A stretch of 64,000 nt of DNA from an uncultured Planctomycetota bacterium (GTDB lineage Bacteria > Planctomycetota > Planctomycetia > Gemmatales > Gemmataceae). The position numbers and the translations under genes were made by a program. Below the pieces are notes generated by a model. That model saw only the letters and a program-made list of their open reading frames with translations, did not search any database and was not told where the DNA came from. Location: positions 288,001 to 352,000 of the forward strand of contig CAWKHF010000012.1 of NCBI GenBank assembly GCA_963849325.1. Direction: 5' to 3'. Positions 34,555 through 54,706 of the stretch are shown one piece after another. Position 1 is the stretch's first letter; the number at the start of each line of letters is the position of its first letter.

Positions 34555-35637
34555 ATGCTTCACGCGATGATCATGGCGGGCGGCGGCGGCACGCGGTTCT
34601 GGCCGCGCAGCCGGCAGCAGCGGCCCAAGCAGTTCCTCGCCCTGGGCGGCGACCGCACGCTGTTGCAGCAGGCCATGGACCGCATCGAGGGGCTGCTGCC
34701 TGCCGAACACGCCTGGGTCATCACCGGCCAAGCCTATCAGGCGGAGACGGCCCGGCAACTGCCGCAGCTGCCGGCCGATCACATCGTCGGCGAGCCGTGC
34801 GGCCGCGACACCGCCGCCTGCATCGGCCTGGGCGCGGCCCTGATCGCCCGCCGCGATCCGTCGGCGATCATGCTGGTGACGCCGGCCGATCACGTCATCG
34901 AGCCGGTGCACGAGTTCGAGCGCGCGGCCCACGTCGCCGCCGCGATGGCCGAGGAGCACCCCTCCGCCCTCGTCACCTTCGGCATCCCGCCGACGTTCCC
35001 GTCCACCGGCTACGGCTACATCCATCGCGGCCCGGAGGTCGGCCAGCGCCAGGGCGTCAGCGTCTTCCGCGTGCAGGCGTTCGAGGAGAAGCCGCCCGCC
35101 GACCGCGCCGAGCAGCTTCGTCGCCTCCGGCGAGTACTACTGGAACAGCGGCATCTTCGTCTGGCGGGCCGCCACGGTGCTGGAGGAACTGCGGCGACAG
35201 CAGCCGAAGCTGCACGACGGCGTGCGGCGCATCGCCGACGCCTGGGACACGCCGCAGCGCGACGCCGTGCTGCGCCAGCGAATACGAGGCGATGCCGAAG
35301 GTCAGCATCGACTACGCCGTCATGGAGCACGCCCGCGAGGTGCTGGTGGTCAAGGCGCCGTACCGCTGGGACGATGTCGGCAGCTGGCTGGCCCTGGAAC
35401 GCATGCACCCGCAGGACGCCGACGACAACACCGTGCTGGCCGACGCACTGCGGCCTGAAGACGAATCATTGCGTCATCGTCGGCGACGCCGGCCGGCTCA
35501 TCGCCACCATCGGCGTGGAGAACCTGCTCATCGTGCAGGACGGCGACGCCACGCTGGTCGCCGACCGCCGCGACGAGGGCACGGTCAAGCAGCTGGTCGA
35601 GCTGCTGAAAAAGAAAGGGCTGGAGCAATACCTGTGA
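34555..35637 (+). CDS. manC: Mannose-1-phosphate guanylyltransferase (frameshifted)
   Basis: IMAGGGGTRFWPRSR..PKQFL, EP.GRDTA, PADH, TGYGYI, F.EKP, SIDYAVME, WDDVGSW. Confidence 0.9.
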   Translation: MLHAMIMAGGGGTRFWPRSRQQRPKQFLALGGDRTLLQQAMDRIEGLLPAEHAWVITGQAYQAETARQLPQLPADHIVGEPCGRDTAACIGLGAALIARRDPSAIMLVTPADHVIEPVHEFERAAHVAAAMAEEHPSALVTFGIPPTFPSTGYGYIHRGPEVGQRQGVSVFRVQAFEEKPPADRAEQLRRLRRVLLEQRHLRLAGRHGAGGTAATAAEAARRRAAHRRRLGHAAARRRAAPANTRRCRRSASTTPSWSTPARCWWSRRRTAGTMSAAGWPWNACTRRTPTTTPCWPTHCGLKTNHCVIVGDAGRLIATIGVENLLIVQDGDATLVADRRDEGTVKQLVELLKKKGLEQYL

Positions 35638-37220: not shown

Positions 37221-40128
37221 TCACCAGCGTAATGGCTTCTGCCACGCTTCCTTGAGGGCCGCCAGCGGTGCCCAGATGATCCATTCGCCGCTCGCCCCGG
37301 CGATGCGCAGGCGCGGTTCCTCGCACGTCTGCCCAATTGGTGTCAACGGGGTGTCACTTCCGAAGCACGAGCGGAACGCGGCCTCCTTGTCGGGTCGCAC
37401 CTCGACGACGAAGCGCGTCGTCGATTCGCTGAACAGCAGCACGTCGTCCGGCAGGCGCGGCATCGCCCAGGCGCGTCACGTCGGCGCCGATGCCGCCGGC
37501 GAAGGCCATCTCCGCCACGGCGACGGCCAGGCCGCCCTCGCTCAGGTCGTGGCACGAACGCACCAGACCGGCCATGATCGCCTCGTGCAGCTTGCGGAAG
37601 ATGCGCGGCGCCAGTTCCAGGTCCGGCCGCGGCACCGTCCCGCCGTCGAGTCCGTGCACGAGGTGGTAGTGCGAGCCGCCCATCTCGTCCCTGCGTCGCG
37701 CCGACGAGGAACAGGAGGTTGCCCGGCTCCTTCAGGTCCATCGTCACGCAGCGGCGCACGTCCGGGACGCGGCCCAGGGCGCTGATGAGCAGCGTCGGCG
37801 GGATGACGATGTTGCCGGCCGCCGGAGTGATATTCGTTCTTGAGGCTGTCCTTGCCGCTGATGAACGGCATGCCGTAGGCCAGGGCCACGTCGCGGCACG
37901 CCTCGGCCGCGCGCACCAGCGAGCCGAGCACCTCCGGCCGGTCGGTGTTGCCCCAGCAGAAGTTGTCGAGCAGGGCGATCCGCGACGGGTCGGCGCCGAC
38001 GGCGACGACGTTGCGCACCGCCTCGTCGATGGCGGCGGCGGCCATCGCGTAGGGGTCGAGGTCGCCGTAACGCGGGTTGATGCCGCAGCCGACCGCCAGG
38101 CCGGTCCACGAGCCGAGCACCGGCATGACCACCGCCGCGTCGCCGGGGCCGTCGTCGTCGACGCCGACCAGCGGCTTGACGACGCTGCCGCCCTGGACCT
38201 CGTGGTCGTACTGGCGGATGATCCATTCCTTGCTGCACACGTTCGGCGAGGCGAGGATTTTCAGCAGGACGTCGTTGAAATTCTCGGGGCGAGCGGGGGG
38301 CGTCAGCCCCCTGTTGGGTGTCAACAGGGGGCTGACACCCCCCGCTCGCCAAGTCGCCTGGCGCACCACCGGCGGCCGGCCGTCGTGCAGGAAGTGCAGG
38401 TCGAGGTCGGCGACCTGCTGCCCCTGGTAGAACAGCCGCAACCGGCCGGTCGCCTCGAAACGGCCGAGGACCGTCGCCTCCACGTCTTCGCCGGCGCACA
38501 GTTCCTGTAACTGCGGCCACGTCTCGGGCGGCACGGCCAGGACCATGCGCTCCTGCGCCTCGCGAGATCCAGATTTCCGTGTACGACAGGCCGGCGTACT
38601 TCAGCGGCGCCTGCTCGAGCTGCACCGCCGCGCCGAGCTCCTCGCCCATCTCGCCGACGGCGGAGCTGAAGCCGCCGGCGCCGCAGTCGGTGATGGCGTG
38701 ATACAGCCCCTGGTCGCGCGCCTGCAGCAGCACGTCCAGCAGCTTCTTCTCGGCGATGGCGTTGCCGATCTGCACCGCGCCGCCGCTGACCTTCTCCGAC
38801 TCCGCGGTCAGCTCGACCGAGGAGAACGTCGCGCCGTGGATGCCGTCGCGGCCGGTGCGGCCGCCGACGGCCACGATCAGGTCGCCGTCGCGCGGCTCCT
38901 TGTGGCAGCGGTCCACCGGGAGCAGGCCGACCGTGCCGCAGTAGACGAGCGGGTTGCCGAGGTAGCGGTCGTCGAAGCAGACGGCGCCGTTGACGGTCGG
39001 GATGCCCATGCGATTGCCGTAGTCGCGCACGCCGGCGACGACGCCCTTCATCACCTTCAGCGGGTGCAGCACGCCCGGCGGCAGCGACTCCGGCGGCGTG
39101 TCCGGCGGCGCGAAGCAGAAGACGTCGGTGTTGCAGATCGGCTTGGCCCCCAGGCCGGTGCCGAGCGGGTCGCGGATGACGCCGCCCAGGCCGGTGTTGG
39201 CGCCGCCGTAGGGCTCGATGGCCGACGGATGGTTGTGCGTCTCCACCTTGAAGCAGACGTGATAGCGGTCGTCGAAGCGCACGACGCCGGCGTTGTCCTC
39301 GAAGACGCTGACGCACCAGTCGTCGGCGCCGAGCCGGCGGCGGACCTCCTGCGTGGCGGCGAAGATCGTCTCCTTGAGCAGGTTGTCGTAGCGCCGAACG
39401 CTGCCGTCCTCTCGCTGGAACTCGATGCGGCCCTTGAGCGTCTTGTGCGAGCAGTGCTCCGACCACGTCTGGGCCAGCGTCTCCAGCTCCACGTCGGTCG
39501 GGTCGCGGCCCAGCTCGCGGAAATGGGCCTGGATGGTCCGCATCTCGGCGAGGCTGAGGGACAGCTGGCCGTCGCGGCTGAGCTTCTCCAGGGCCGCGTC
39601 GTCCAGGTCGCGCAGCGGCACGGTGACGAGCCGGAAGCGAGTAATCGGAGCCGAGGCTCAGGTGATCCAGGGTCAGCGGGCCGGCGACGACCTGCTCGAT
39701 CGCCTCGTTGGCGAGCACCTTGCGGAAGAGGACGGCCCGCGCCTCGGGCGGCGCCGGCGGGCCGAAGTAGCGGCGGAAGGTGCGCACCGACGCCGACGGG
39801 GATGCCGAGGTCGCGGGCGGCCTCGACGACGCTCAGCGCGGTCGGGTCCATCACGCCAGGCTTGAGCAGGACCGTGGCCAGGTGGTCGGGCGCAGGTGTT
39901 CGTTGAGGGTGCCCAGCCGGCCGGACTCGACGAGCGGATCGACCAGCAATTCGTCGGCCAGGCGCTTCGCCTGCGGCGCGACAACTCGCCCTCGACGAGA
40001 TAGCCGCGCGCCGTGCCGGTGATCCGCTCGGCGCCGTCGCCTGTGTGCGTCAGCAGGTCGTATTCTTCACCGACGCGCCGGCGCTCCCCATCGTCGCCCC
40101 TGGGCTGAATCTCGATCTCCCAGAACAT
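37221..40128 (-). CDS. purL: Phosphoribosylformylglycinamidine synthase subunit PurL (several frameshifts)
   Basis: [71 protein letters not shown]. Confidence 0.95.
38288..38350. repeat. 63-bp palindromic element in frame within purL
   Basis: GGCGAGCGGGGGGCGTCAGCCCCCTGTTG-GGTGT-CAACAGGGGGCTGACACCCCCCGCTCGCC; translates as [21 protein letters not shown]. Confidence 0.85.
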
Positions 40129-40173
40129 GCTGTCGTCTCCGTCGCACTCCGCCGCAGGCGGCTGGGTTGGATC

Positions 40174-40776
40174 TCACAAGAACCAGAGCCGGAAGACGTA
40201 GATACCGATGAAGGCGCCCACGAACAATCCGCTGATAATCAGGCCGCTGGTGGCCACGATCATGTGATGGCCGCGCGTGCGTAAGGCGGCCGCGGCCTGT
40301 CCCAGGCCGAGCACGCCCAATAGCGCGGCGCCCAGGATCAGGACCAGGGCCAGCAGGGCGACGGCAATCGTCATGCCCACGGCGGCGACGGTGATCGCCG
40401 CAATCACTTCGCCGACGACCATCAGGACCCAGGCGCCGATGCCCATTGCCAGGCCGAGGACGGCCTGGCGGAAGTGGGCACGGGCCTGCTCGGGAGCGGC
40501 CTCGCGGGATTCCAGAGCACGCTCGACGCAGGCGGCACACAGGACCTGGTCGCACCAGCGTGTGCGGCAGACTTCGCAGAAGTAATTGCCGCAACGGCCG
40601 CAGGTGCCGACCGCCTCCTGTCCGGCGTGAACGGCGCAGGCGCCCTCGCCTTCGCGGGCCGGTCGGCCGGTGCGACCCGGCGGTTCGTACAGCGGATCGC
40701 GGCAGTTAGGGCAGCGCGCACCGAGGCGCTCGCGGTCAACCGGCAAGGGATAGTCACAGGAGGGACAACGGTTCAT
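40174..40776 (-). CDS. Zinc-finger (B-box-like) membrane protein
   Basis: CPSC..CPNC; C..H...C..C...FC..C...C..C; three TM helices. Confidence 0.75.
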   Translation of the reverse strand: MNRCPSCDYPLPVDRERLGARCPNCRDPLYEPPGRTGRPAREGEGACAVHAGQEAVGTCGRCGNYFCEVCRTRWCDQVLCAACVERALESREAAPEQARAHFRQAVLGLAMGIGAWVLMVVGEVIAAITVAAVGMTIAVALLALVLILGAALLGVLGLGQAAAALRTRGHHMIVATSGLIISGLFVGAFIGIYVFRLWFL

Positions 40777-40779
40777 GGC

Positions 40780-41519
40780 CTAGCCCTGCCATTGCTTGAC
40801 GATGCTGAGCAGGGCGATCGCCGACGACCACACGACGCCGGCCAGCCCCGCCGTCACGCCGGTCATGGCCAGTCCCCTTCCGGCCAGGTGTGCCTTGCCG
40901 TCGATCTGCCGCAACGCCAGCCAACCGAGGACCAGCTCGCCGCTCGCCAGGACCAGGGCGATCAGACAAAATACCAGCGCCACGACGACCCCATTCTCCA
41001 GGGTCATGTAGACACCGATGGCCATGAAGGTCAGGAACAGGCTGACCACGGTGCTGACCAGAGCGAGGATGAAGGCGAGGAGGGCGAGCGGCGCCAGGCG
41101 GGCCGGCCGACTCAGGCCGCGGACGCGGAAGTTCTTGCACGGCCCGCACAGTGTCTGCCCTTGCAATGCGACCACACAGGCGGAGCAAAACGAGGCGTGG
41201 CAGGCGTCGCAGGTCGCTTCCCTGGGCGTCTCGTCGTGGTTGAGACAGTAAGCGGGGTTGGGACGGTGTCGGGCGCGCACGCGGCGCGGCGGCAAGGCTT
41301 CCGGCTCGGGCCAATCATCCTCGGCGGTCGGCCGGGGGTGCGCGGCCGAGACGACGGCGGCATCGGCTGGGCCTCCTCCGGTTCCGGCTCGGGGACCGTG
41401 CTCGACCACGGCACGCGATTGCCGTGGCCACATTCGCAGAAAACGAGCGTGCCGGACAGGTGCTCGGCCCGGCCGTGGCGCTTTCCGCATTGCTTGCAGG
41501 CGAACCAAATATGTCTCAT
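40780..41519 (-). CDS. Zinc-ribbon/B-box-like membrane protein; target gene of the integrated element (frameshifted)
   Basis: MRHIWFACKQCGK...FCECG..NRVP, CLNH..CDAC..FC..C, TM helices; first codons lie across the left att repeat. Confidence 0.75.
41490..41507. repeat. att site (left direct repeat)
   Basis: TTGCTTGCAGGCGAACCA. Confidence 0.9.
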
Positions 41520-41557
41520 AATAGATCGTCCTAGCCGCTCCCGAAAGGAGGAATAGA

Positions 41558-43216
41558 ATGGGCGACATGCCAAGACGCGCGTACTCCTACCTTCGGTTTT
41601 CCCACCCCAAGCAGGCTACCGGGGACACCATCCGAAGGCAAGAAGAATGGACCGCGAGCCTGTGCCGGCGGCACAGCTGGTATCTCGATGACACCCTACG
41701 CTTTGCAGACAAGGGGAGGTCCGCGTTTCACGGCGGACTCAAGGCGCTAGGGCAGTTCCGCGACCTGGTGCGACGCGAACGCATCGCGCCCGGCTCGGTG
41801 CTCGTCGTGGAGGTGCTCGACCGCATCTCCCGCGAGGAGGTTGATGATGCTTACGACATCTTCCGAGAGATCATCCGGGCCGGCATATGGATCGCTACGC
41901 GGGAACCGGAGCGCATCTATACCCGCGAGACGTGTGCTGGGAACATGCTCAATCTGCTGGAACCGCTCTTCATCTTTGCACGTGCCCACGATGAGAGCCG
42001 TGCAAAGTCTATGCGTATCCGGGAGGCGTGGGTGCATCAGCACCGAAAAGCGAGAGAGGAAAAGCAGCCGATCCAATCGCGGCCCCCTTGGTGGCTAAGG
42101 AAGGGGCAGCACGGTTATGAGTTGATCCCAGAGCACGCCGAGGCGATACGGCAGATGCGAACGCTCTGCCTATCCGGGCACGGGTACACCCAGACCGCAG
42201 GGGAATTGGCCCGGCGGCTGTTTCGCCCGCCCGGACGGAACTGGTGTATCGAGACCATCCGAAGTACGCTGAAATCTCGTCGCACGCTCGGCGAGCACCA
42301 GCCGGGACACAAGATCAAAGGCCGGCTGGTGCCGGACGGACCACCGATCCAGGGATACTACCCGACTATCTTCACTCCGGAGGAGTGGGAGGCCATACAA
42401 GGGGCGATCCAGCGCAGACAACGCAACAAGCCGGGACGGCCAGCGAAGGAATGCGCCAACCTCTTTACCGGGTTGGTATTCGAGGCGAATTCCCGGCTAC
42501 CTATGTCAAAGGGGTCCGCACGGCCGCAGCATGGGGGGAAGAAATACAACAGCCTCAAGTGTAGGAACGCTTATTATGGGATGCCGCTCTGCCGCGTTCC
42601 CTACGAGTCGCGTAGGGGACAGCCGGGATTTGAGGGGTGCGTGTTAGACACCATCGCGATGCTACGTCCCCAGGACGTGCTTGACGACGAGCGGCGATCC
42701 GACGAGCGGGAGCACCGCATCGACGCACTGACCAAACGTGTAACGGCCCTGGCACATCGCCGGGGACAACTGCAGGCGGCGGCAGCCGACCCAGAGCAGG
42801 ACGCCGCAGACATTCTACCAGCCCTGGCGACAGTACGTCGGGAGTTGGAAACGGCGGCGAAGGAGTTGAATGCCCTCAAGCTCGAAAGCCAGACAGGCCG
42901 GGCGGAAGCGCTAGCAGAGTGCCAGACGCTACAGGAACTGCGGCAACGCGCCCAGGGCGAGGAGCGGCAGGAGTTAGACCGCCGCATCAAGGCGGCGCTA
43001 CCGTCGATCATGGAATCCATCTGGATACAGTGCCAGAGAGTATCTACCCGGCATCAGATCGTACACATCCAGATATGGCTACACAGCGGCTCCATGCGCT
43101 ATGTGCAGATGCTGCCACCGAACCTCCACGGCGTCAAGCCGTGGCAGCTGGAGGAACACGACCTACGCAAGGGGCATTATGTAGGCGACGCTACAAATAT
43201 GGCCCAACCGGCGTAG
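41558..43216 (+). CDS. Large serine recombinase (integrase)
   Basis: AYSYLRFS..KQ catalytic Ser, D.GRSAF, VEVLDRISR, ESRAKS.R, YYPTIFTPEEW, NLFTGL, coiled coil; SD AGGAGG. Confidence 0.93.
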   Translation: MGDMPRRAYSYLRFSHPKQATGDTIRRQEEWTASLCRRHSWYLDDTLRFADKGRSAFHGGLKALGQFRDLVRRERIAPGSVLVVEVLDRISREEVDDAYDIFREIIRAGIWIATREPERIYTRETCAGNMLNLLEPLFIFARAHDESRAKSMRIREAWVHQHRKAREEKQPIQSRPPWWLRKGQHGYELIPEHAEAIRQMRTLCLSGHGYTQTAGELARRLFRPPGRNWCIETIRSTLKSRRTLGEHQPGHKIKGRLVPDGPPIQGYYPTIFTPEEWEAIQGAIQRRQRNKPGRPAKECANLFTGLVFEANSRLPMSKGSARPQHGGKKYNSLKCRNAYYGMPLCRVPYESRRGQPGFEGCVLDTIAMLRPQDVLDDERRSDEREHRIDALTKRVTALAHRRGQLQAAAADPEQDAADILPALATVRRELETAAKELNALKLESQTGRAEALAECQTLQELRQRAQGEERQELDRRIKAALPSIMESIWIQCQRVSTRHQIVHIQIWLHSGSMRYVQMLPPNLHGVKPWQLEEHDLRKGHYVGDATNMAQPA

Positions 43217-43628
43217 GCAACTGACCGCGAGCGCACAGTCGGCGTAAGCATCGGGAGGCCCGGAAAACCGCCGGGCCTTCGCCATCTCGGCGACCCAGGA
43301 ATCCCCATCCCAGAAGAAGCCGAACGAAGAGAGGACCACGAAGCAACCGCCAAGCATGATGCACCCCCTCGGTAGCAATCATGCACGCGCCACACCGCGT
43401 TTTCGTCACCACATCCTACCAAGCCCAACCAGATTCTCAGGACCAACGCCGGTAACTGTCAAGCAAGGGTAAGAATCCGCAACGCTGGAGCACTCAACCG
43501 CACGACACGGCCTGCCCTAACAACCGGGCTTTCCACACGCTTGTCCGCAACTATCAGTTTGCACCCGACCGGGTAGGTTGTAGTCTTGGTGAGTCCTGAA
43601 CGCTCCCTTACCCACGGCAGAGGTTGAC

Positions 43629-43865
43629 ATGAAACCAAAATTGCTGACCATCGCCGAGGCGAGCAAGAGACTAAACGTGTCCGGCACCACGCTACGGCGG
43701 ATGATCCGCACCGGCGAATTCCCGCCGCCCGTTCGGCGGAACAGCCGCTGGGTCCGTGTCCCGGCATCGGACATCGAAAACTACCTGACCAAACTGGCGG
43801 AACGCCGCCAGACCGAGCAACCCCGACACCAGGCCGACACCACCGGCCGCCAATTGGAGACATGA
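43629..43865 (+). CDS. AlpA/excisionase-type HTH DNA-binding protein
   Basis: LLTIAEASKRLNVSGTTLRRMIRTGEFPPPVR...RVPASDIENYL. Confidence 0.85.
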   Translation: MKPKLLTIAEASKRLNVSGTTLRRMIRTGEFPPPVRRNSRWVRVPASDIENYLTKLAERRQTEQPRHQADTTGRQLET

Positions 43866-43868
43866 ACC

Positions 43869-45114
43869 ATGAAAGCCCGCGTTTTGAAAGCCTTCGACGA
43901 TTGCAAGGCCGGCGACATCATCGACGTGCCGCGAGCCACGAGCAATTTCGCCGTGCAGAGAGGCGATTTGGAGGAAATCAAGGACGCTGAAACCCTACTC
44001 GCGCAAAAGGTCCGTCGCGCGATCGAAAGGCGCACGATCAGGAAAAAAGTCAGGTCGCTGGAGAGGCCCGCGTTGAGCTTCGGCCAGTTCCTGACCCTGC
44101 TAGCCAAGAGTGGAGGCCGCGACTTCCCCGCGCTCGCCCAGAAGGCGGCGCTGAACGAAGCGTCTGGGATCGAGGGCGGTTATCTCGCGCCACAGGGCTT
44201 CGCCAAAACTATTTTCCAGGCCAGCGAGCGGGGCCGAATCCTGCGCCGGAGCTACCCTATTCCCCACGAGCCACCGTGAAGAGTTAATCCCCTTGTGGGA
44301 TATGACAACTCCACAGACGGCCGGCACAACGCCGTTCTTCGGCGGGCTGAAATTGCAGTGGTACGAGGAAGGAGTCGAACCGGCCGAAAGTGAACCGGCG
44401 ACCAAGCAGCTGGCGATGGTCCCGAACTATCTAGGCGCGCTGGTGTTGGCCTATAACGCTTGGCTCGCGGACGCCGCTCGAGGGACCGTAGAAGCGTGGC
44501 TCTTGGCCCTGTTCGGAGAAGCCGTGGCGTGGTACGAGGAATACGGCTTCCTCCAGGGCAAGGGGGCGGGCCAACCGCTCGGCATCCTCAACAGCGGCGC
44601 AACCATCAACGTCAGCCGCGCTGTCGCCGGCGACATCGAGTTCGCCGACATTGGCGGGATGCTCAACAAGCTACTTCCGGAGTCCATCAATCGCTGTTTC
44701 TGGATGTACTCGCCGACCTGTCAAAGCGCCCTGATGCAACTCAAGGACGGCGCGAATCGGGCCGTGATGCTGCAAGTCGGAGCGACGCCCGCCGGACGCG
44801 GACAGTGGACCATCGCCGGAATCCCTGCTTATCCGACCGAGAAGTTGCCAGCCCTAGGGACCAAGGGAGACCTCGTACTCATCGACCCGCGCTGGTATGC
44901 AATCAGTGACTTCATAGCCGAGGAGGGACAGCCGGCGGGCGGCGGTCGTAGCCTAGCCGTAAGTTTCTCTGGCGAGGCGAGTCAGACGGTCTTCACCAAG
45001 AACCAGACGGTCTTTATGATTTCACAGCGCCTCGACGCACGGCCGGTTATCGACAGCCCCATCACCTTGCAGGACGGCGTGACGCAGGTGTCGCCGTTCG
45101 TGGCCCTTAACTAA
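43869..45114 (+). CDS. HK97-family phage major capsid protein (frameshift at C-run ~44261)
   Basis: ALNEASGIEGGYLAPQ, W.EEG....ES.P, FLQGKGAGQPLGILN, LMQLKD, G.P.Y.TE.LPALG..GD..L.D, F.KNQT.F....R.D..P, SPFVAL. Confidence 0.88.
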
Positions 45115-45240
45115 GACATTTGGGCTCCGCGAACACGGCGAGGCGACGGATTGCCTAGCCGTGGAGTCGCGCCACGGTGATGCTGAACCTTTTCGTGCAA
45201 TCCACATCGAAAACTACCCGCAAGCCTTGAGGGAGAAGAC

Positions 45241-46215
45241 ATGAGCAGCCTGGCCGACGAAATCATTGCCGCGATGGAAGCGGGCGGAACCAAGAAGGAA
45301 CCCGCAACGTTCGACGAGGTAGACGCTTTCCATCTCCAAAACGAGGCCGAACAAGTGTTGAAGTACCTCCCGCTACTCGGACAAAGCGGCTACCTCGTCG
45401 AGGGCTGGTCGCACCTACTCGCCGGCTTCCCCCGCGTCGGCAAGTCCGAATTACTCTACGCCTGCATGGTCGAATGGTTACGAGCGGGCCAGACCATTCT
45501 CTACTTCACCGAGGAGGGCCGTGAGCTATGGCGGCAACGACTTCAGCGCCAACGAGTACCCGCCGAGGGATTACAACTGGTGTTCGCGCTCGGTGGCAAG
45601 TCCCTGGACCTCCTAACGCGGATGAGGAAGAGTGGGGAGCCTATCGTTGTGATCGACACCATCCGCAGCCTGCAAGTCCTGCCGGCCGACGAGAACGACA
45701 ACGCCGCCGTCGCCCGCGCCCTCGAACCCTGGGTGACTGCCGCACGCGAGATGAGCAAGACCCTGATTCTCAGCCACCATGCCCGCAAGGGAGGCGGCGA
45801 GCACGGCGAGGGCATCTCCGGCGGTCATGCCCTCTTCGGGGCCGTGGACGTGGCCCTGGAAGTCTGCCGCAGTACGACACCGGCTCGGCGGATCATCAAG
45901 GCCCATGCTCGCCTAATCCAGCCCGCCGACCTCCTCTACGAGCGGGACGAGGATGGCAGCCTGGCCGCTCTCGGCGATCCCAGCGGCGTCGGCCTGGCGG
46001 AAGTCGGCCGCCGCATCCTCGACGTGATGGATCACCAATGGGCCAAGACGGCCGACGTACACGACCGCCTGGAGGAACCCCGGCCCAGCGCGGAACAACT
46101 TCGCCTCGCTCTGGCCGCCGAGGCCCGCTGCGGCCGCCTGGAACGCGATCCGCCCATCAGCGTCGCCAACGTCCAGGGCAAGACCACTCGCTGGCGGCTC
46201 CTCGGAGGCGAGTAA
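45241..46215 (+). CDS. AAA/RecA-like (RepA/SF4-type) helicase-like replication protein
   Basis: Walker A AGFPRVGKS, YFTEE, Walker B VVIDT, LSHHARKG...SG..AL.GAVD; probable C-terminal wHTH. Confidence 0.82.
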   Translation: MSSLADEIIAAMEAGGTKKEPATFDEVDAFHLQNEAEQVLKYLPLLGQSGYLVEGWSHLLAGFPRVGKSELLYACMVEWLRAGQTILYFTEEGRELWRQRLQRQRVPAEGLQLVFALGGKSLDLLTRMRKSGEPIVVIDTIRSLQVLPADENDNAAVARALEPWVTAAREMSKTLILSHHARKGGGEHGEGISGGHALFGAVDVALEVCRSTTPARRIIKAHARLIQPADLLYERDEDGSLAALGDPSGVGLAEVGRRILDVMDHQWAKTADVHDRLEEPRPSAEQLRLALAAEARCGRLERDPPISVANVQGKTTRWRLLGGE

Positions 46216-46332
46216 CTTCACTTCCCACCTATAGGAGAGACCCCCTTGTATGTGAGGTGAAGAAAAGTGAAGCGAAGCGTTTACGCTTCACTTTCTTCCC
46301 ACAGTCCCTCTCTTAAGGAGGGAAGTTCAGTT
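46214..46332. repeat. Long imperfect inverted repeat directly after the helicase (candidate origin)
   Basis: AACTTCACTTCCC...GAAGAAAAGTGAAGCG / CGCTTCACTTTCTTC...GGGAAGTTCAGTT. Confidence 0.55.
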
Positions 46333-46363
46333 CATCCAGCGCTCGACACCAACCGGAGGCATC

Positions 46364-46606
46364 ATGTCTGAACTGAAAGACGTTGTAAACAAACTGTGCA
46401 AAGAGCTTGACCGGCTCTTCCACACGCCGGACCTCTTGCACCGCGAGCAAGGTTATCCCAATCTAGCCGAACTTCTGGCTAGCATTAACGCAGGCATCCA
46501 CCGAGCCGCCGACGCTCTCGACCGGATGAACCCGCCGCCACAACCGCCGCCGTTCGTGCCGGAGGGCTTCACGGACGCGGAGTTGCTGGCCGGCAAGGTC
46601 AAGTAG
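46364..46606 (+). CDS. Small hypothetical protein (80 aa)
   Basis: SD GGAGG, ATG, helical sequence with Pro-rich tail; same strand as element genes. Confidence 0.6.
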   Translation: MSELKDVVNKLCKELDRLFHTPDLLHREQGYPNLAELLASINAGIHRAADALDRMNPPPQPPPFVPEGFTDAELLAGKVK

Positions 46607-47221
46607 TGTCCGTCCGCCGCACTCACGGCCCCAAGCGATGTCGTCCAGGCGTCGTTTCGGGGCCGATTCCTGCACCGCCAGCAGGCCAAGCTGCACCTTT
46701 CCTGTCGTCCCGCTGCACACCCTCGACAAAACCTCCACAACCGGCATCGCAGCCTTTTCTTGTCCATATACCGATCAAATGTTCACTAAAGCGATAAACA
46801 AGAGGAGTGAAGGTAGATCGTGTTGCCGGGATGGCCGCGTTTTCCGGGCTGGGAGGGTAGGTTGCGTCCGGCAGCTGGGAGGCGCGTGCGGGGGTGCGTG
46901 CGGCCCCTGCGCCGCCCTCCGCGTCCCGGCGGCCGTGGCCCGCACGGACGCTCTGGGCGGCTCCGGGCCTACGGTGCGCCGGGACGTATCCGCCGCCCCC
47001 TGCGGCCGTCTGTCCCGCTGCCCTCACGGCGACGGACAGACGGCCTGCGGGCGGCTCGGTGGTGCGTGTGTGTGTGTGTGTGCGGGGCTGTACGCCCCCT
47101 GGTGTCGCGCAGCGACACCGCCGTCGCTGCGCGACGGCTGCCGGCCCTTACAGGCCGGCGGGGGCTGCGGTGTGCGTGCTGCGGGACACATCGCGGTGAG
47201 ACCCTGCCTTGCGTGCCCGGC

Positions 47222-47404
47222 TGCCTGCTGCTGCCGGCCCAGGTGGTGCGCGACATCACGGCTGTTCGTGTTGATGGCCGGCAGCAGCAGGCAACTCGGG
47301 CTCGTGTGGGGCAGACCGTGCCTTGCGGGCGCACCGGCATCTGGCTGCGGCCCAGGTAGTGCGCGACATCCCGGTTGTTCGAGCTACGGCCGCAGCCAGA
47401 TGCC
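47222..47404. other. Two tandem hairpins with different stems and a conserved ~35-nt apical motif (candidate structured RNA/ssDNA)
   Basis: 18-bp and 17-bp perfect stems enclosing CAGGTRGTGCGCGACATCMCGGYTGTTCG. Confidence 0.6.
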
Positions 47405-47543
47405 ACCACGTCTACATTCGGCAACCGCATCCATGCGGGGTTCGAGGCGGGCAGGACGCCCGCCAGCTGGCCCATGACGACGAGGATGCGGCTCCAGCAG
47501 ACCCAAGGCCACGGGTGGCCTTGGGCTGCTGAGCTTCCTACGG

Positions 47544-47757
47544 ATGCAGGGACGCAGCCTGCGGAGCATTGCCGAGGAGGAGGGGGTGAGTCAGGAACAG
47601 GTACGCAAGGATTCTCGATCCTGCTGTCAACCAGTTGACACCTGACCTACCACCCGCCCAGGTGCTCGGCAAGGACGGCAAGGCGTATCCGGCGGACAAC
47701 TCCGCACGCAAGCCCGCGCTACCCGGTCCCGTCGTGGACAACGCCGCCGCTCCGTAG
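47544..47757 (+). pseudogene. HTH fragment with G.DGK.YP motif (frameshift near 47610)
   Basis: MQGRSLRSIAEEEGVSQEQVRKD / ...VNQLTP...VLGKDGKAYPA. Confidence 0.45.
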
Positions 47758-48587
47758 TCGGCTCCTCAGCATTTTCTTATTTATAAGACCGCTAGCACCC
47801 GTGCTTGCCTATCTTCGTTCCGTTCCCCCACGTCATCACGCCCAGCCTTCCCGCTGTCACGCCCTCTCGTGTTCACCGCGTCGCGTCATGGGCCATCCTG
47901 GCCCATAGTCGCGTCGCGGCGGGCCATCCTGGCCCTCAAGCTGTGGGCGGGTGCCCCGCCCCTGTTTGTCTCCGCGTCACTCGCGGTCGGGTTGTGACGG
48001 TGTATCGTGACCCTACCCGTCCTGCTGCTACCGCCGTGCCCTAGCAGATGCTTACCCGGTTTCCACGGCGTCGTAAGACAGACTAGCCTATGAGGTCCGC
48101 AGAGCACACCCGGCCAGACAGAAGCATTTTGAGGTCGTTCGTGTCGTACTGGCTGACGAGTCGTCACGTCCTCCCCCGCCCGCGACAGATTCCGCCAGTG
48201 TCGCGGGCGGCCTTTTTGGCCCCCGCGACACTGGCGGCTTCCGCCCAGGGGGGCGGAAGTGCGGTAGTGCGTAACGGTGTGTCGTGCTGTGACGCTCAGC
48301 ACGTCGTCTCGCCCTCCCCCCCGCGTAAGAACGCCGCCGGAGCGCGGGTTGTCCCCGCGTCCGGCGGCGTCGCAGCCCTTGCAGGCTGCGAAGAAGCTAC
48401 CAGGCGACGTCGTGACAGCCCTATTCGATGCTGCGAGGTTGACGGGTCATCATGCGCTGCTCTTTTCTTTTCTTTTCTCTTTTGAGTACAAAAGAGAAAA
48501 GAAAAGAAACAAAAGAAAAGAGAAAACAAAGACAGACACTCACACGCCCCAAGGGACAGGATGACGGTCAAACCCGTGAAATGATCG

Positions 48588-48760
48588 CGTTTTGTCCAAG
48601 TGCCCTAGGTGCTGTTGTAGCAGGTATGTCAAGGTAGGTTGATTAAAAGCAATTTTGCTGTCAGAGAAGTTGTACGGTCAATGAAACTAGGCAAAATTGC
48701 TTTTAATCATTCCACCTTGACTACCTGCTATTACATCATCAGGGGCACTTGAACAAAACG
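48588..48760. repeat. AT-rich ~70-bp imperfect inverted repeat with 32-nt spacer
   Basis: Arms 48588-48658 and 48691-48760; innermost TGATTAAAAGCAATTTTGC/GCAAAATTGCTTTTAATCA perfect. Confidence 0.85.
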
Positions 48761-49030
48761 GGTTAGACTTGCACGGGGAGGCGAGTGCGACCCGCCATTA
48801 CACGCCGGGTCGGAGAGGGAGGAGGAGGAGGAGGAGGAGTGGGGTGGGGGTGGCGCGGGCCGCAAGCGGCTCATATGTTCATGTGTTCATAGTTCATCGT
48901 GGGTCGTTGGCCGGTCTCCCCGCTGGGTGCCGCTGCGCTGGGCTGGGATGGGTGGTTACGGTCGGGGGCTGGGCGGCGGCCGCCTCCGGCGGCCGCCCGG
49001 TGTCTCCTTGTGCTCTCCGCCTTGTCCGTG

Positions 49031-49099
49031 TTTTTGTGCGGTTTTTGCGGGTTTTTCTGCATTTTCCTCTTGACAGCTACATGTCGTTTGTGGTAGAAT
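49031..49099 (+). promoter_or_regulatory. Near-consensus sigma70 promoter with phased T-tracts upstream
   Basis: TTGACA(49070)-18 nt-TAGAAT(49094) with TG extension; T4-5 tracts at ~10-11 bp spacing. Confidence 0.7.
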
Positions 49100-49177
49100 C
49101 GCTGTCTGCAATGGCGATGGGGGGCGGTTGGCCCCGCCCCCCATCTAACCCGAACCCCGTGCTAGCGGAGTCGAGTC

Positions 49178-49507
49178 ATGTCTAAGGGTATCCGTTCGTC
49201 GTCGGTCTGTCTATTCCACATTACCCCCCGCCGCAATCTCCAATCGATCTACAAGTTCGGCTTGCTGCCGTGCTTCGCTCGGGGCGTGTTGCGTGCCGTC
49301 TGGCTGTGCTCGGCTTCCCGCCGCCGCTGGGCCGCCGTCCACGTCGAGGACCAAAACTGGACTTCGGACATCGTTGTCATCCGCCTCATCCTGCCGCGTG
49401 CCTGGCTCCGCCGCTTCCGTCGCGGCATCTGGCATTGCTCGCAGCCGATCCCCCCCTCGTGCATTGTGTCCGTCTCCGCCCCGTCCCCGCTGTCCCCCGC
49501 CGCCTGA
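49178..49507 (+). CDS. Small ADP-ribosyltransferase-fold-like protein (Tpt1/KptA C-domain or DarT-like signature)
   Basis: LFHITPRRNLQSIYKFGLLP...VWL...IW....IPP..I pattern; SD GGAG. Confidence 0.55.
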   Translation: MSKGIRSSSVCLFHITPRRNLQSIYKFGLLPCFARGVLRAVWLCSASRRRWAAVHVEDQNWTSDIVVIRLILPRAWLRRFRRGIWHCSQPIPPSCIVSVSAPSPLSPAA

Positions 49508-49564
49508 ACTCTTGGCCCGCCCGATCCGCCGCCCAGCGGATCGGCCTTCTTGGAGTATTCGGAT

Positions 49565-49936
49565 ATGTCTACTCGTTCATATCGTCTGTGCTTGCGCATC
49601 GACAACGGCGTGGAACGCCACTACGCCGTCCGCCCGCTGGCAGCTGCCGACCTGGAAACGCCGTTCCTGTGCGGCTATGCCCTAACGGAACGCACGCAAA
49701 ATTCACACCCGACCTACCATGTCCGCCTTGCCGCCGATGGCATTGTCAACTGCTCGTGTCCGCAGTGGAACAAGGCCGAGACCTGCAAGCACGCCGACGC
49801 CCTCGTGGCCGCCGGCCTGCTGCCGGTGCGGCTCGTCGAAGTGCTCGCCGCCACCCGCCACTTGCTCGACCTCGCCGAAGCGAAGATCGCCGCCATGCCC
49901 AAGCCCCGATCCCGCAAGAAGAAGACGGACAACTGA
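49565..49936 (+). CDS. SWIM zinc-finger protein
   Basis: Y.V......CSCP......CKH..AL. Confidence 0.75.
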   Translation: MSTRSYRLCLRIDNGVERHYAVRPLAAADLETPFLCGYALTERTQNSHPTYHVRLAADGIVNCSCPQWNKAETCKHADALVAAGLLPVRLVEVLAATRHLLDLAEAKIAAMPKPRSRKKKTDN

Positions 49937-49988
49937 TCGTCGCCACGCGGACCGGCCGCAAGGCCGGTCCCCTCGACACGGAGGAAAC

Positions 49989-50342
49989 ATGGCCCGACAC
50001 CGCAGACCGAACACCGCCGACGACCGCCGCCAGCTACTGGCCGCTGCCGCCGCCGTCCTCGGTGTCGCCGCCGACGCAGTTATTCTCGTCGCCGGCGCCG
50101 TCGAGATCGTCCGCCCCGAGCCGCAGCCGGTTCGTCCTGGCCGACTGCCCGAGGGCATGAGCGCCTACGATGCCGCCATTCTGGGGGCGCTCGCTGACAG
50201 GCCATTGTCAGCCCAGCAGATCGCCCACCGCAGCGGACACCGCCACAACAGCTACTTTCGTGGCCGTCTCGCCGCTCTTGTCGAGGCAGGCCACGTCCGA
50301 CAAACCCGCCGAGGGTACAGTCTCGGCGGGCCTGGCAGGTAG
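49989..50342 (+). CDS. Winged-helix DNA-binding protein
   Basis: SD GGAGG; ILGALADRPLSAQQIA.RSG....YFRGRLAALVEAGHV....GYSL. Confidence 0.7.
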   Translation: MARHRRPNTADDRRQLLAAAAAVLGVAADAVILVAGAVEIVRPEPQPVRPGRLPEGMSAYDAAILGALADRPLSAQQIAHRSGHRHNSYFRGRLAALVEAGHVRQTRRGYSLGGPGR

Positions 50343-50416
50343 CAGCTGGCAATCGTCTACTTGTTCCTGCCGGCGGGGCGGGTATCCTCGCCGGCATCAC
50401 TCACAGGAGGTTTCCC

Positions 50417-50635
50417 ATGCTAACCATCGAACGCCGCGCCTTCCTCGAAGCGATCGTGCTTGCCGCCCTCATCCCCAACTGGCAGCGAACCAACCCCTTC
50501 GAGCCACCCGAGCAGACCCGGCAACGCCTTGCCGTCGAGGCGCTCAAGATTGTCGATTCGTTCCTACGCGTGACCGGCGACGCGAACTTGCCGCCCCTCG
50601 GCGTGCCGGCCAACGACCCCAGCGTTCCCTTTTGA
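50417..50635 (+). CDS. Small hypothetical protein (72 aa)
   Basis: SD AGGAGG, ATG, co-oriented with cargo operon. Confidence 0.6.
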   Translation: MLTIERRAFLEAIVLAALIPNWQRTNPFEPPEQTRQRLAVEALKIVDSFLRVTGDANLPPLGVPANDPSVPF

Positions 50636-50708
50636 ACGATCCGCTCCGCGCCCTCGGCGACGTTCGCCCAGGGCCGGGCGCTTCCCATCGCCCACGGAGG
50701 TTTGCACC

Positions 50709-51038
50709 ATGAAGAAGCTCGTTGCCGTCGCCGTAGCCCTCGCCGCCCTGGGCGCTGGTCGCGCCGAGGACAAGACCGCCACCCAGAAGCCCGACGAGCC
50801 AGCCCCGGTCATCGTCAAGACCCAGCTGCCCCGGTACTTCAAGCAGCTCGGCTTGACCGACAAGCAGCGGAAGGAGGTCTACAGGGTCCGTGCTGGCTAC
50901 GCCGCCAAGATCGCCAAGCTCAACGAGGAGATCGCTACCTTGCGGTTGAAAGAGAAGGGCGAGGTCGAGGGCGTTCTGACCGAGGCTCAACGGAAACGCC
51001 TCCAGGAGATGCGGGCCGGCTCCGATTCCAAGAAGTGA
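50709..51038 (+). CDS. Small secreted LTxxQ (Spy/CpxP-like) helical protein
   Basis: Signal peptide; LP.YFKQLGLTDKQ...VLTEAQRKRL; SD GGAGG; GCAA-loop hairpin follows at 51052-51077. Confidence 0.7.
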   Translation: MKKLVAVAVALAALGAGRAEDKTATQKPDEPAPVIVKTQLPRYFKQLGLTDKQRKEVYRVRAGYAAKIAKLNEEIATLRLKEKGEVEGVLTEAQRKRLQEMRAGSDSKK

Positions 51039-51115
51039 CACACCAGGCATCGACCGGCCGGGGCAACTCGGCCGGTCCCCATAAGAGGGCAATGATGAGA
51101 ACAAAGTCCCAAACC

Positions 51116-51133
51116 TTGCTTGCAGGCGAACCA
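51116..51133. repeat. att site (right direct repeat)
   Basis: TTGCTTGCAGGCGAACCA followed by GATCAT (original host ATG at 51139 on minus strand). Confidence 0.9.
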
Positions 51134-51135
51134 GA

Positions 51136-51924
51136 TCATGATGTTTTCTCGCTCGAACGCACGGCGTCACCGGGACGTTCGCCGAGGACCGCCGCCATTT
51201 GCAGCACGAACTTCTCGGCGCTCTCGTACTCGCCCGGCGTCAGGTCGAGGCGCTTCTCGAAGAACTGGGCGGCGGCCTGGAACAGCCGGGCGCGTTCGAG
51301 GACGCGCAGCTGATCGCGGCGCAAGCACAAGTCGAGCAACGTCTGCTTCTGCTCGCGGTCGAGCTGGACGAGGCGTTGACGGAGCAGCGCCAACCGCTGA
51401 CGGTCGGCCTCGCTGCGCGCGTCGGGCAGGGCCAGGATCGGCTGGACGTTGCGCTCGACGTGAACCACGAGGGTATCCGCGGCCAGGTCGCCGAGGCGGC
51501 GCTGCTCGCGATTGCCGGCGGCGACGGCGAAGCCGAGCAGTCCCGGACCCAGAGGCAGCGGCACGGGCAAGCTGTCGGCGACGCGCAGCAGATTGCGAAC
51601 CGCCGACTGAAAGAAGGTGATGGACGTGCCGCGCCACTGGATGACGCGAATGCCGAGCAGGTACTTGCCCGGTGTTTGTCCGTGCCAGAGCCATTCAAAA
51701 AAGATGAAATAACCCCACAGGACCACGAACTGTCCGATCACGATCACCGCCATGCCCAGGCCGGGCCGGCCGAGCGTGAGGACGCCACCGACGACGGCGC
51801 CCATGACGATCAGCAGCAGCACCGCCAGCGCATCGATCAGCCAGGCCAGGAAGCGCGAACCCAGCCCGGCGACGCGGTAGCGGAACGGCACTTTCTCGGT
51901 GGTGAGCACCTCATGGCGGATCAC
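51136..51924 (-). CDS. RDD family membrane protein
   Basis: AGLGSRFLAWLID, GQTPGK..LGIRV, RNLLR..D, RRLGDLAADTLVV. Confidence 0.92.
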   Translation of the reverse strand: MIRHEVLTTEKVPFRYRVAGLGSRFLAWLIDALAVLLLIVMGAVVGGVLTLGRPGLGMAVIVIGQFVVLWGYFIFFEWLWHGQTPGKYLLGIRVIQWRGTSITFFQSAVRNLLRVADSLPVPLPLGPGLLGFAVAAGNREQRRLGDLAADTLVVHVERNVQPILALPDARSEADRQRLALLRQRLVQLDREQKQTLLDLCLRRDQLRVLERARLFQAAAQFFEKRLDLTPGEYESAEKFVLQMAAVLGERPGDAVRSSEKTS

Positions 51925-52919
51925 GCCTGGTCCTCCCGCGCCGCCGCTCGGCCCCAGCCGAGCAACAGAATGTAGGCCAGAAACAGCAGGGCGAAGACGG
52001 CGGCGACGGCCAACTTCAATCCCTTGCCGAGAAACCAGTCCGGCGCCCGCGCCACGCCAGCCTCCAGACACGCAGCCACGGCCAGAAGCGGCACACAGCC
52101 GAATAGCATCAGCACCGACTGCTTGCCTAGGCGAGCCAACTCCTCGCGCCGCGGCCACGGCCGCGCTCGCAGGAAGCCCTGCGCCAGCACGAAGCCGGCC
52201 GCTCCGCCGATGAGGCAAGCCGGGATCTCCAGCACGCCATGCGGCAGGATGCCGGTGGCGTAGGCCGTCAGCTGATGGGCCTCGGCGAAGACGGAGCCGA
52301 GAGCGCCCAGAAGAACGCCATTATAGAACATCAGCCAGGCCGTGCCGAGTCCGAGCGTGATGCCCAGGGCGAAGGCGACCAGGCTGACGCTGACGTTGTG
52401 CGTGAACAAAAAGCTCGAAAACGCGGTCAGGTCATCCGTCGTGTACATGGGCGCGGCCTGCTCCTCGCCCTCGGCCGGCGGCTGGATGGTCGGCATGTCC
52501 GTGGGCAGCAGGTAGGCGCGGGCAACCTCCTTGTCGTAGGTGCAGGCCAGGTAGCCGAAGACGGCGCCCGCCGCGAACAGCAGCGTGGCCAACAGGAAGT
52601 GCGGCAGGTAACGACGAAAGACGGCCGGGTAGCCCCAGAAGAGATAACGCAGCAAGCCCCGCACCTCGACGCGCGTTTTGCCATAAATGGCGAGGTAAGC
52701 GCGGGCAACCAAATCATTCAAATAGCGCTCGGTGGCCTCGCCGCTGACGAAGGTCTGGGCCTGGTTTAAGTCCGAGGCGGCGCGGCGATAGAGGCGGCCG
52801 AACTCGACGGCTTGCTCGTCGTCCAGTGAGGCCAGACCGCTGCCCTCGACACGCTGAAGGATTGCTTCGAGGCGTTTCCAGTCGGGGCGGCGCTGCCGGA
52901 GAAACGTCGCCAAATCCAT
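51921..52919 (-). CDS. Stage II sporulation protein M (SpoIIM/DUF95) family membrane protein
   Basis: W.RLE, LYR..ASDL, YLN.LV.RA, THN..V, NG..LG, ILPHGVLEI, LEA. Confidence 0.9.
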   Translation of the reverse strand: MDLATFLRQRRPDWKRLEAILQRVEGSGLASLDDEQAVEFGRLYRRAASDLNQAQTFVSGEATERYLNDLVARAYLAIYGKTRVEVRGLLRYLFWGYPAVFRRYLPHFLLATLLFAAGAVFGYLACTYDKEVARAYLLPTDMPTIQPPAEGEEQAAPMYTTDDLTAFSSFLFTHNVSVSLVAFALGITLGLGTAWLMFYNGVLLGALGSVFAEAHQLTAYATGILPHGVLEIPACLIGGAAGFVLAQGFLRARPWPRREELARLGKQSVLMLFGCVPLLAVAACLEAGVARAPDWFLGKGLKLAVAAVFALLFLAYILLLGWGRAAAREDQA

Positions 52920-52955
52920 ACCAGTCACCTCATCGCGGACCACGAAGACAATTCA

Positions 52956-53107: not shown

Positions 53108-54462
53108 TTACATCCGTACCCCTGTTTTCAGAGCCAGGTAGCGATTCACGGCGTCAATCGTCAATCGATCCGGCACGGTATCGAGCACCAGGACGCCCTG
53201 TCGTTCGAGGCTACGTAACAATTCGGTGCGTCCATCGAGCAGGTCGCGGGCCACGAGGACGTCATACAGTTCGTCGGCGTCTTCGGGCTGACGAGCGGCC
53301 AATTCCTGCAGAGCCACGTCGGCCACGGCCAGCGTCAGCGGGAGGTGAAAGCGGCGCAGCAGTGCCGCCGCGTCGAGATACTCGCGCGATACTACATCGT
53401 CGAGCATGTCCGTGAAAACCATCGTCAGGGCGCGCTTGGGGTGCTGGGCGATGAGATGGCCGAACGCCTCGCGGTAGTTGACGTAGCACAGCTCCGGCTT
53501 GATGCTGTACAGCGCTTGCAGGAAGCGAGCGTGCTGGCGCGGCCCTTGGCCGGCGGTAAATACAGATGGACCGTGTGCGAGAACACCAGCAGACCGAGAT
53601 TGTCCTGGAACGTCTGGCTGACGTGCGCCAGCATGAGGACGGCGTTGATGGCGTGGTCGAGCTTGGTCAGCGTGCCGACGCGGGCCGCCATCATGCGGCC
53701 AACGTCCAGGCAGAAAAGGATGTCCTGGCTGTGCTCGCTCTCGAAGACGCTGGTGATCGGCTTGTTGTGGCGGGCCGTCGCCTTCCAGCTGACGTGGCGA
53801 TAATCGTCGTCTGGCGTGTAATCGCGGTAATGGCTGAACTCGCGGCCGGTGCCCGGCAGACGCTTGGCTCGATAGCCGCCAGCGCGGACAAGGGTGGTGC
53901 GCACCAGAGCTTCATAGCGGCGCACCTCGAACAGGTTGGGATAGACCTGAACGCCCTCCGCGGCGGGCAGAAGGCGATCGACGCAAGCCAGGCCAAGCGG
54001 ACCCCGGCAGCGCACGGCCACGTCGCCGAAGGCGAAGTTGCCGCGCTCGGTCGGCAAGAGCCGATAGCGAAGGCGAGCCCAGCCGTGGGCCGGCACGTCC
54101 GCGTCCAGGAGCGGCGGCTCGGCCCGGAAGCTCGGCGGCGGCTGATCGCGCAACCGCAGCCGCAAGCGCCGCCGGCCGTGATTTTCGACGACGATCATCA
54201 CGTCGTTGTCCACGCCCAGCGACAGGCGGGCCGGCCGTTCTCGCCGCACGCGCAAACACGCCGGCCGGCTCCTTCGCCGGGCCAACAAAGCATCCAGACC
54301 GAGGAGCAGAAAGATGCCGGCGTCGAAGCCGAACACCAGCCCGCGGACACCCCCGGCGAACTCTCCGGCGTGAGCCAGCGGAAGCAGCGGGAGGACGTAC
54401 CCGGTCAGCCACAGCACCAGGCCGAACAGGAGTAACCAGACCGTCGCGCGCGTCGGGACCAT
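53108..54462 (-). CDS. DUF58 (vWA-associated) domain protein (frameshift near 53530)
   Basis: RG.F.FG, VYPN, G.EF...RDY.P.DD.RHVSWKATAR, LDVGR.M, FTD. Confidence 0.9.
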
Positions 54463-54706
54463 CGGCGAAATACTTCCGAAGGAGCATCGAGCTTCCGGGT
54501 ACTTTGTACTTCTCTCGCGCTGGTTTGTCCGTCCGCCAACGTGGCTCGTTCGCTGGCCGCCCCCATCCCCGAACGCCTCCCCCTACCTCCTCGTCCTATC
54601 CTTGATTGTGCCGGCGAACCGTCTACAAAGGATAGGAGGTACAACCAAGGTCCGGCCGAGGACTCGGCTCGCCGCCGCGAGATTATGCCAGGGAGGATTG
54701 CTGGGC

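Follow-up and report, generated by a model that had tools for sequence, protein, structure and literature searches.

A serine-recombinase island in the start region of a planctomycete zinc-ribbon gene, with an attP arm that probably rebuilds the gene start

Mobile elements that integrate into the beginning of a gene have been described in streptococci. The SpyCI islands of Streptococcus pyogenes are reported to integrate between mutS and mutL, at the beginning of the latter, to block the operon and to excise in early growth (PMC3430984, PMC4129442, PMC4689407), and in the decayed island SpyCIM5 a cryptic promoter in int is described as driving mutL (PMC3430984). For integrative and conjugative elements (ICEs) of Streptococcus located in the 5' ends of ftsK, rbgA and ebfC, the survey concerned reports that the frame is kept with an unmodified N-terminus, some of these elements replacing upstream or promoter sequence (PMC4701971). 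Elements carrying a large serine recombinase (LSR) are also known inside genes, with SPbeta in spsM, A118 in comK and skin in sigK as cited cases (PMC5499854, PMC7397523). For SPbeta-like phages, the attP/attB overlap is given as 2 to 16 bp; glnA, with an overlap of 106 bp, is presented there as the only intact target, and its integrase is of another type, not orthologous to SprA (10.1101/2021.11.22.469490). Here we describe a 9.6-kb LSR island within a 64,000-nt stretch of a planctomycete genome (the stretch as a whole is called the window; its own genome, G000, comprises 8,163,468 bp in 14 contigs and is 84.7% complete). The island lies in the start region of a zinc-ribbon gene, ZnF1, between the gene for an RDD-family membrane protein (RDD) and the downstream genes ZnF2 and purL. 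No published description of this planctomycete island was found.

The island is inserted in the start region of ZnF1

The island extends from about 41496 to 51119, plus a shared core, and has a GC content of 0.59-0.63 across most of its length, compared with 0.66-0.72 outside. The core is a direct repeat of 18 bp, with 20 of 21 positions matching once the adjoining bases are included, and a repeat finder independently recovered the same pair (41490-41510 versus 51116-51136, 95% identity, spacing 9626, family D19). Allowing up to two mismatches, the 18-mer has exactly two copies in the genome and its reversed control none; such a pair at these two sites is far beyond chance.

The minus strand of the left junction has ATG AGA CAT ATT followed by TGG TTC GCC TGC AAG CAA TGC GGA AAG, which translates as MRHIWFACKQCG (longer form MRHIWFACKQCGKRHGR) in the frame of the open reading frame (ORF) 41112..41573. 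At the right junction, the same strand has an ATG at 51139-51137, then ATC TGG TTC GCC TGC AAG CAA GGT, and the RDD stop codon TGA (51138-51136) overlaps this remnant ZnF1 start as ATGA. These readings confirm both ends as given in the first-pass annotation of this DNA, namely MRHIWFACKQ on the left and MIWFACKQ overlapping the RDD stop on the right. The start codon supplied by the element thus keeps the ZnF1 ORF open across the left junction.

Empty sites were compared in 11 related genomes and in 23 metagenome copies (34 in total). RDD orthologues, with 59-87% identity, were found in 9 of the 40 relatives searched, and in eight of these nine ZnF1 lies directly 3' of RDD, its start about 0 to 30 nt from the RDD stop or overlapping it. 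The sequence M/V-I-W-F-A-C-K-Q-C-G directly follows RDD in G009, G007, G003, G008, G004, G022 and G002, and ZnF1 of G012 begins MIRFACKQCG. The exception is G006, where RDD is followed by a strong hairpin and a convergent oxidoreductase gene (L003, G006:C377); its ZnF1-ZnF2 pair is on another contig (L079, G006:C156), preceded by a non-coding stretch of about 210 bp. ZnF1 of G006 starts MIWF, as does ZnF1 in two more genomes of the family, G118 and G108. An exact-pattern scan for ZnF1 across 252 family genomes matched only 8. The metagenome copies were sought with a degenerate pattern over codons 3-10 of ZnF1, which gave 25 matches, 23 of them ZnF1 and two unrelated. Of the starts recovered in this way, 21 are ATG-ATY, one is GTG-ATT and one TTG-ATT, and the 3' end of RDD precedes ZnF1 in 7 of the 23.

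An MRHI start was seen in none of the 11 genomes and none of the 23 metagenome copies, all of which begin M/V/L-I-(W/R)-F. Relative to the 11 empty genomes the insertion is precise, with no extra bases and no host bases lost. Since none of the 34 empty copies carries MRHI, insertion and replacement of the N-terminus are established, in agreement with the earlier proposal of a site-specific insertion in which the element provides a new ZnF1 N-terminus: no relative starts MRHIWF (0 of 34), and RDD and ZnF1 are neighbours in 8 of 9. The ZnF1 protein is not left unchanged, given that MI has become MRHI and all 34 empty copies begin M/V/L-I. No other element was seen at the same attB in the 11 genomes or the 23 metagenome copies. 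The coordinates of the features discussed here and below are collected in Table 1.

Table 1. Features of the window, with coordinates, strand and supporting evidence.
Feature	Position	Strand	Evidence or remark
attL copy of the 18-bp core common to attB and attP	41490-41507		identical to 51116-51133
attR copy of the 18-bp core	51116-51133		identical to 41490-41507
Predicted crossover dinucleotide	41494-41495, twin 51120-51121		TT on + strand; AA of Lys codon 7 on gene strand
Predicted P' arm of attP, LSR-proximal end	41496..41525		minus strand encodes M-R-H-I-W-F-A-C; 15/30 to G135 arm
Predicted P arm of attP, far end of island	51090..51119		17/30 identical to G135 arm
Element-supplied ATG of rebuilt ZnF1	41517-41519	-	attL reading; AGGA 9 nt upstream
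Remnant native ZnF1 start (MIWFACKQ), 50 aa, running into island	50987..51139	-	ORF reading
ZnF1: zinc ribbon, Pro/Arg linker, B-box-like finger, DUF4190-like membrane domain	40780..41519	-	orthologue comparison
ZnF2, B-box-like membrane protein, ZnF1 paralogue	40174..40776	-	71% identical to G009/G002 ZnF1 neighbours
purL (FGAM synthase), at least 7 frame pieces	37224..40140	-	single-copy in G000
RDD-family membrane protein	51136..51873 (longest ORF to 52218)	-	PF06271 E 4.1e-22
SpoIIM-family protein	51921..52943	-	PF01944 E 1.3e-36
DUF58/VWA protein, one frame change at about 53540	53111..54477	-	comparison with G009
LSR, 552 aa, intact ORF	41558..43216	+	PF00239 E 2e-11, PF07508 E 1.5e-10, phrog_95 integrase E 6e-54
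Capsid region, two ORFs in different frames	43869-44279 and 44293-45114	+	PF05065 E 7.5e-23, phrog_10 major head protein
AAA_25/helicase-like replication protein	45241..46215	+	PF13481 E 9.4e-15; weak primase/helicase PHROGs
Winged-helix regulator-like segment	50136..50342	+	phrog_2440 E 2.2e-4; weak HVO_A0261_N

Recombinase, crossover and attP arms

The LSR ORF begins 63 nt from the predicted crossover, and its ATG is preceded by AAGGAGG at 6 nt. The resolvase-type catalytic domain (PF00239) covers residues 8-163 and the Recombinase domain (PF07508) residues 191-287. R13, S15 and Q19 are invariant in eight relatives, and from the motif YxRxSxxxQ we take S15 to be the nucleophile. A profile built from the LSR and seven relatives matched SPbeta integrase (9dxh; E 6.8e-13, over positions 81-440) and phiC31 integrase (3e-4); the single LSR sequence compared with the PDB by phmmer gave no match. 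No Pfam zinc-ribbon match was found in the protein, and the sole sign of a coiled coil was a weak SMC-like match at 375-474.

Homologues of the LSR (E <= 1e-20) occur in 57 genomes of a 201-genome family sample, and close ones only in G135 and G109. In 10 other species of the genus the LSR was not found (0 of 10), the best match being 37% identical, and a search of genome contigs gave one match, 28% identical, in a Bacteroidales metagenome-assembled genome. Metagenome contigs and viral contigs yielded no match to the LSR, and viral contigs none to the 20-nt element-side junction string. The zinc-ribbon motif of ZnF1 was found within 1.5 kb of the LSR at none of 19 non-self LSR loci.

The closest relative of the LSR, with 51% identity, is encoded in a collinear island of G135 (L038, G135:C36), whose attP has perfect 21-bp inverted arms around GT with a 2-bp overlap (4907-4929 and 14311-14333). 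That insertion was checked against four empty congeners, which have the same length and no other duplication. The G135 island lies 48 nt upstream of the start of a DUF1015 gene, a few bases past a TAAGAT that is kept in 4 of 4 congeners, and may part this gene from its promoter. In G109, the related LSR (L039, G109:C11, 6176-6500) is 51% identical over the N-terminal 216 residues, is apparently frameshifted, and has its start some 90 nt away from a divergent cluster of tRNA-Trp, tRNA-Thr and tRNA-Arg, on the side of the cluster's 5' end; the ends of the G109 element were searched for and not found.

LSRs exchange strands at a central dinucleotide between inverted arms. The register of the crossover was predicted by sliding both arms of the window island along the G135 attP arms, with 5000 shuffles as a control. 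The register centred on TT gives 15/30 and 17/30, or 32 matches, compared with 23 for the runner-up, and none of the 5000 shuffles reaches 32. In this register all four half-sites of the window begin GCA, and the centre on the gene strand falls within TGC-AA-GCA, so that the AA of Lys codon 7 is the most likely crossover. A crossover at this point would make all of the attL sequence 5' of it island-derived, that is, eight codons (ATG AGA CAT ATT TGG TTC GCC TGC). The element supplies the new N-terminus, as the first-pass annotation had it, and its contribution would grow from four codons to eight.

The 12 nt of the P' arm nearest the crossover equal the host B' half-site and are unlike the P arm or the G135 arms. 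This identity goes beyond what the mechanism demands, yet it keeps W-F-A-C. Further out, a mirrored motif is present as TGTCTCAT at 41512-41519 in the P' arm and as ATGAGAACA at 51095-51103 in the P arm; it stands at an equal distance in both arms (TGT at +17 to +19), the far arm having one extra base. Direct symmetry between P and P' is weak (9/30), and without gaps the modelled attP scores at most 11/28 for symmetry, a score reached by 1637 of 2000 shuffles; attB likewise did not rise above shuffles. The motif had been proposed from the outset as an arm of attP, and this proposal acquires meaning in the register derived from G135, although the motif is not significant when taken alone.

Based on these comparisons, we consider it likely that the LSR inserted the island at codon 7 of ZnF1 and that an attP arm rebuilt the start of the gene. 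The LSR of a phage-satellite-like island would insert it at an attB centred on Lys codon 7, and the LSR-proximal attP arm would bring in the eight codons given above. The resulting attL would encode a full-length ZnF1 differing only by the change of MI to MRHI, and attR would retain the native ZnF1 start, now a stub of 50 codons coupled to RDD. Within this scheme, the exact crossover dinucleotide and the use of the new ATG are what we infer. ZnF1, ZnF2 and purL, parted from the promoter of DUF58-SpoIIM-RDD, would presumably need a promoter in the recombinase end of the island or inside the genes themselves.

Several points weigh against this explanation. No second copy of the island, and no close relative of its LSR, was found that would show the rebuilt start to be conserved. 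The new ATG lies within the mirrored distal arm motif and may serve recombinase binding and not the host gene, and by our own estimate random sequence would offer an in-frame start ahead of a stop about half of the time. The negative promoter scans described below leave use of the new start, and transcription downstream of it, unsupported. Finally, ZnF1 and purL carry frame breaks, which, if genuine, would mean that both are dead genes; RDD, SpoIIM and the LSR are free of breaks, so that errors, if such they are, are spread unevenly.

Expression of the rebuilt gene and competing explanations

In orthologues, ZnF1 is a single ORF of 240-246 aa. The window copy runs in frame -1 (41510 to about 41290) and then in frame -3 (41337/41370-40783), with the switch at about 41322-41340, in the linker. 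Searches of curated Pfam and NCBIfam families returned none for ZnF1 or ZnF2, only sub-threshold matches to DUF4190 and B-box, and an Atlas look-up places ZnF1 among hypothetical proteins that are commonest in Planctomycetota (score 0.96). The start of purL is at most about 46 nt from the end of ZnF2 at 40174.

One competing explanation is that the open frame is incidental: the ATG would belong to the attP motif, ZnF1 would be inactive or unexpressed, and the breaks would be decay after a polar insertion. The occurrence of the ATG in a mirrored distal motif that both arms share is in line with this, as is the count of frame changes, which is 7 over the 4.4 kb that follow the insertion downstream (at least 6 in purL and one in ZnF1) and 0 in RDD and SpoIIM. 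Furthermore, all 29 serine-integrase ICEs of Streptococcus covered by one survey are reported to disrupt their targets (PMC4701971). Frame changes occur elsewhere too, however, with one in DUF58 and two within 0.5 kb in an unrelated plus-strand gene (35111-35634), and the pieces of purL remain 63-91% identical to G009 at the amino acid level, mostly without internal stops. Single-base indels are found repeatedly next to CG dinucleotides, for instance the missing T of C(T)CG in purL and ZnF1, a pattern that looks like systematic long-read assembly error, possibly at a methylated motif. Because the purL pieces are conserved, DUF58 and the plus-strand gene are also broken, and the indels adjoin CG, the break in ZnF1 looks like an assembly indel error; it also seems reasonable to suggest that so few contigs at this level of completeness reflect an indel-laden long-read assembly. 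The 12 host-matching nucleotides of the P' arm, which the mechanism would not need and which keep W-F-A-C, likewise argue against an incidental frame, and we consider that explanation unlikely.

Transcription of the downstream genes bears on a second alternative. In G009, DUF58, SpoIIM, RDD, ZnF1, ZnF2 and purL follow one another without interruption on a single strand, their frames abutting or overlapping, and the insertion falls at the 5' end of a gene in this co-directional cluster, whose spacing suggests an operon. The genes of the island face the opposite way, and RDD and ZnF1 are now 9.6 kb apart, which makes a polar cut of ZnF1-ZnF2-purL from DUF58-SpoIIM-RDD a reasonable expectation; that these three genes are cut off from the upstream transcript is plausible. 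Co-transcription with RDD does not appear to be obligatory, since ZnF1 of G006 stands apart from RDD with its own upstream region of about 210 bp.

The divergent starts of the LSR and the rebuilt ZnF1 are only 38 nt apart (41520-41557), so any ZnF1 promoter would need to lie inside the recombinase gene. An outward promoter had been expected near 41520-41700. Sigma-70 scans returned none: there was no sigma-70-like promoter on either strand of 40000-43400, and no sigma-70-like site of at least 8/12 on the minus strand of 41500-41900, scans that say little for Planctomycetota. A motif TAARATAAC precedes both ZnF1 in G006 and DUF1015 in the G135 group, TAAAATAACC in the G006 upstream region resembling TAAGATAACC ahead of DUF1015; no copy was found near the island end or the ZnF and purL genes, and the window as a whole has 4 against 2.2 expected. 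As for the recombinase itself, its promoter would need to be in host DNA in the integrated state and would span attP in the far end of the island in the circular form, which would tie expression of the recombinase to the state of the element.

The second alternative is an excision switch, an active lysogeny of the SpyCI/mutL type, in which the integrated island silences ZnF1-ZnF2-purL and regulated excision makes the operon whole again, and with it purine synthesis. The geometry resembles that reported for SpyCI, with a phage-like island at the 5' end of a gene in a co-directional cluster and the integrase beside the target. The contiguity of the six genes in G009, the short or overlapping spacing of RDD stop and ZnF1 start in the genus (at most about 30 nt), the failure of the sigma-70 scans to find an outward promoter and an LSR ORF that is intact amid an assembly full of frame errors would all fit such a switch. 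LSR excision needs a directionality factor, and domain and PHROG scans identified none among the island ORFs. In addition, purL is single-copy and the consensus is the integrated state, so silencing would make a purine auxotroph the majority state, and the separate upstream region of ZnF1 in G006 makes internal or alternative promoters plausible. We therefore regard a switch as rather improbable. Should the sole purL nevertheless depend on the island for its transcription, SpyCI-type operon control would extend to Planctomycetota.

The three related LSRs, beside ZnF1 in the window, DUF1015 in G135 and the tRNA cluster in G109, all adjoin a gene start and read away from it. This raises the possibility, to our mind a very unlikely one, that a planctomycete LSR clade specialises in the 5' boundaries of host transcription units and seizes control of them. 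In the window, one attP arm would have evolved to mimic host codons, so that the gene survives; ZnF1-ZnF2-purL would be island-dependent, and integration and excision would act as a reversible switch of purine biosynthesis. That the repeat arose with no LSR integration, as a transposon target-site duplication or a misassembly, is extremely improbable, since beyond the general possibility only the weak ungapped symmetry of the P and P' arms speaks for it, whereas comparison with the 11 empty genomes shows exact ends and nothing added, the LSR gene lies 63 nt from the predicted crossover, homology links the arms to the attP of a related LSR element, and G135 has a collinear element with a 51%-identical LSR.

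Island content and comparison with known systems

Among the 12 island ORFs scanned, matches to PHROGs were confined to the LSR, the major head protein, the helicase-like protein and the regulator, and the winged-helix segment is kept in the G135 element (58% over 62 aa). Of the two ORFs in the capsid region, only the second (44293-45114) matches PF05065, and the pair may be one gene split by an assembly indel. The content suggests a small element of phage-satellite-like type. No tRNA gene was found near the island. About 2.6 kb of it (46600-49200) is without a convincing ORF, and here the GC content dips to 0.52 and inverted repeats of 39 nt (48588/48722) and 31 nt (48628/48691) occur; a perfect 21-nt AT-rich hairpin is also present inside the island, at 48464-48509.

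If the LSR did join the island to codon 7 of ZnF1, as we favour, the locus would offer a clean natural example of a serine-recombinase attP whose one arm is at the same time the opening eight codons of the interrupted host gene, and would show that highly conserved coding sequence is usable as a landing site without destruction of the gene. The related pair of att sites, palindromic with a GT centre in G135 and asymmetric with a TT centre in the window, could help to map how this LSR clade reads DNA.

In comparison with SpyCI as described, the window island is likewise a small, phage-like and site-specific element at the beginning of a gene in a co-directional cluster, with the integrase beside a highly conserved target sequence and the downstream genes presumably parted from the upstream promoter; a ZnF1 promoter inside the recombinase gene would moreover parallel the rescue by the int promoter reported for SpyCIM5 (PMC3430984). 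It differs in its planctomycete host, in its target, which lies ahead of purL and encodes a zinc-ribbon membrane protein not yet characterised, and in the alteration of the ZnF1 N-terminus by two residues; its recombinase is an LSR. With the Streptococcus ICEs at 5' ends it shares a conserved gene start as target and a frame that is kept, and is unlike them in the change from MI to MRHI; unlike the 29 target-disrupting serine-integrase ICEs of the same survey, it leaves the frame of ZnF1 open (PMC4701971). SPbeta, A118 and skin belong to the same recombinase family and have similarly short att sites. As reported, these elements break the target ORF, which excision rebuilds, whereas the window island keeps the ORF open while integrated, and does so at the 5' end. 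A gene-preserving strategy is thus already known for mobile elements, and what would be new here is the phylum, the change from MI to MRHI and an asymmetric attP with a coding arm.

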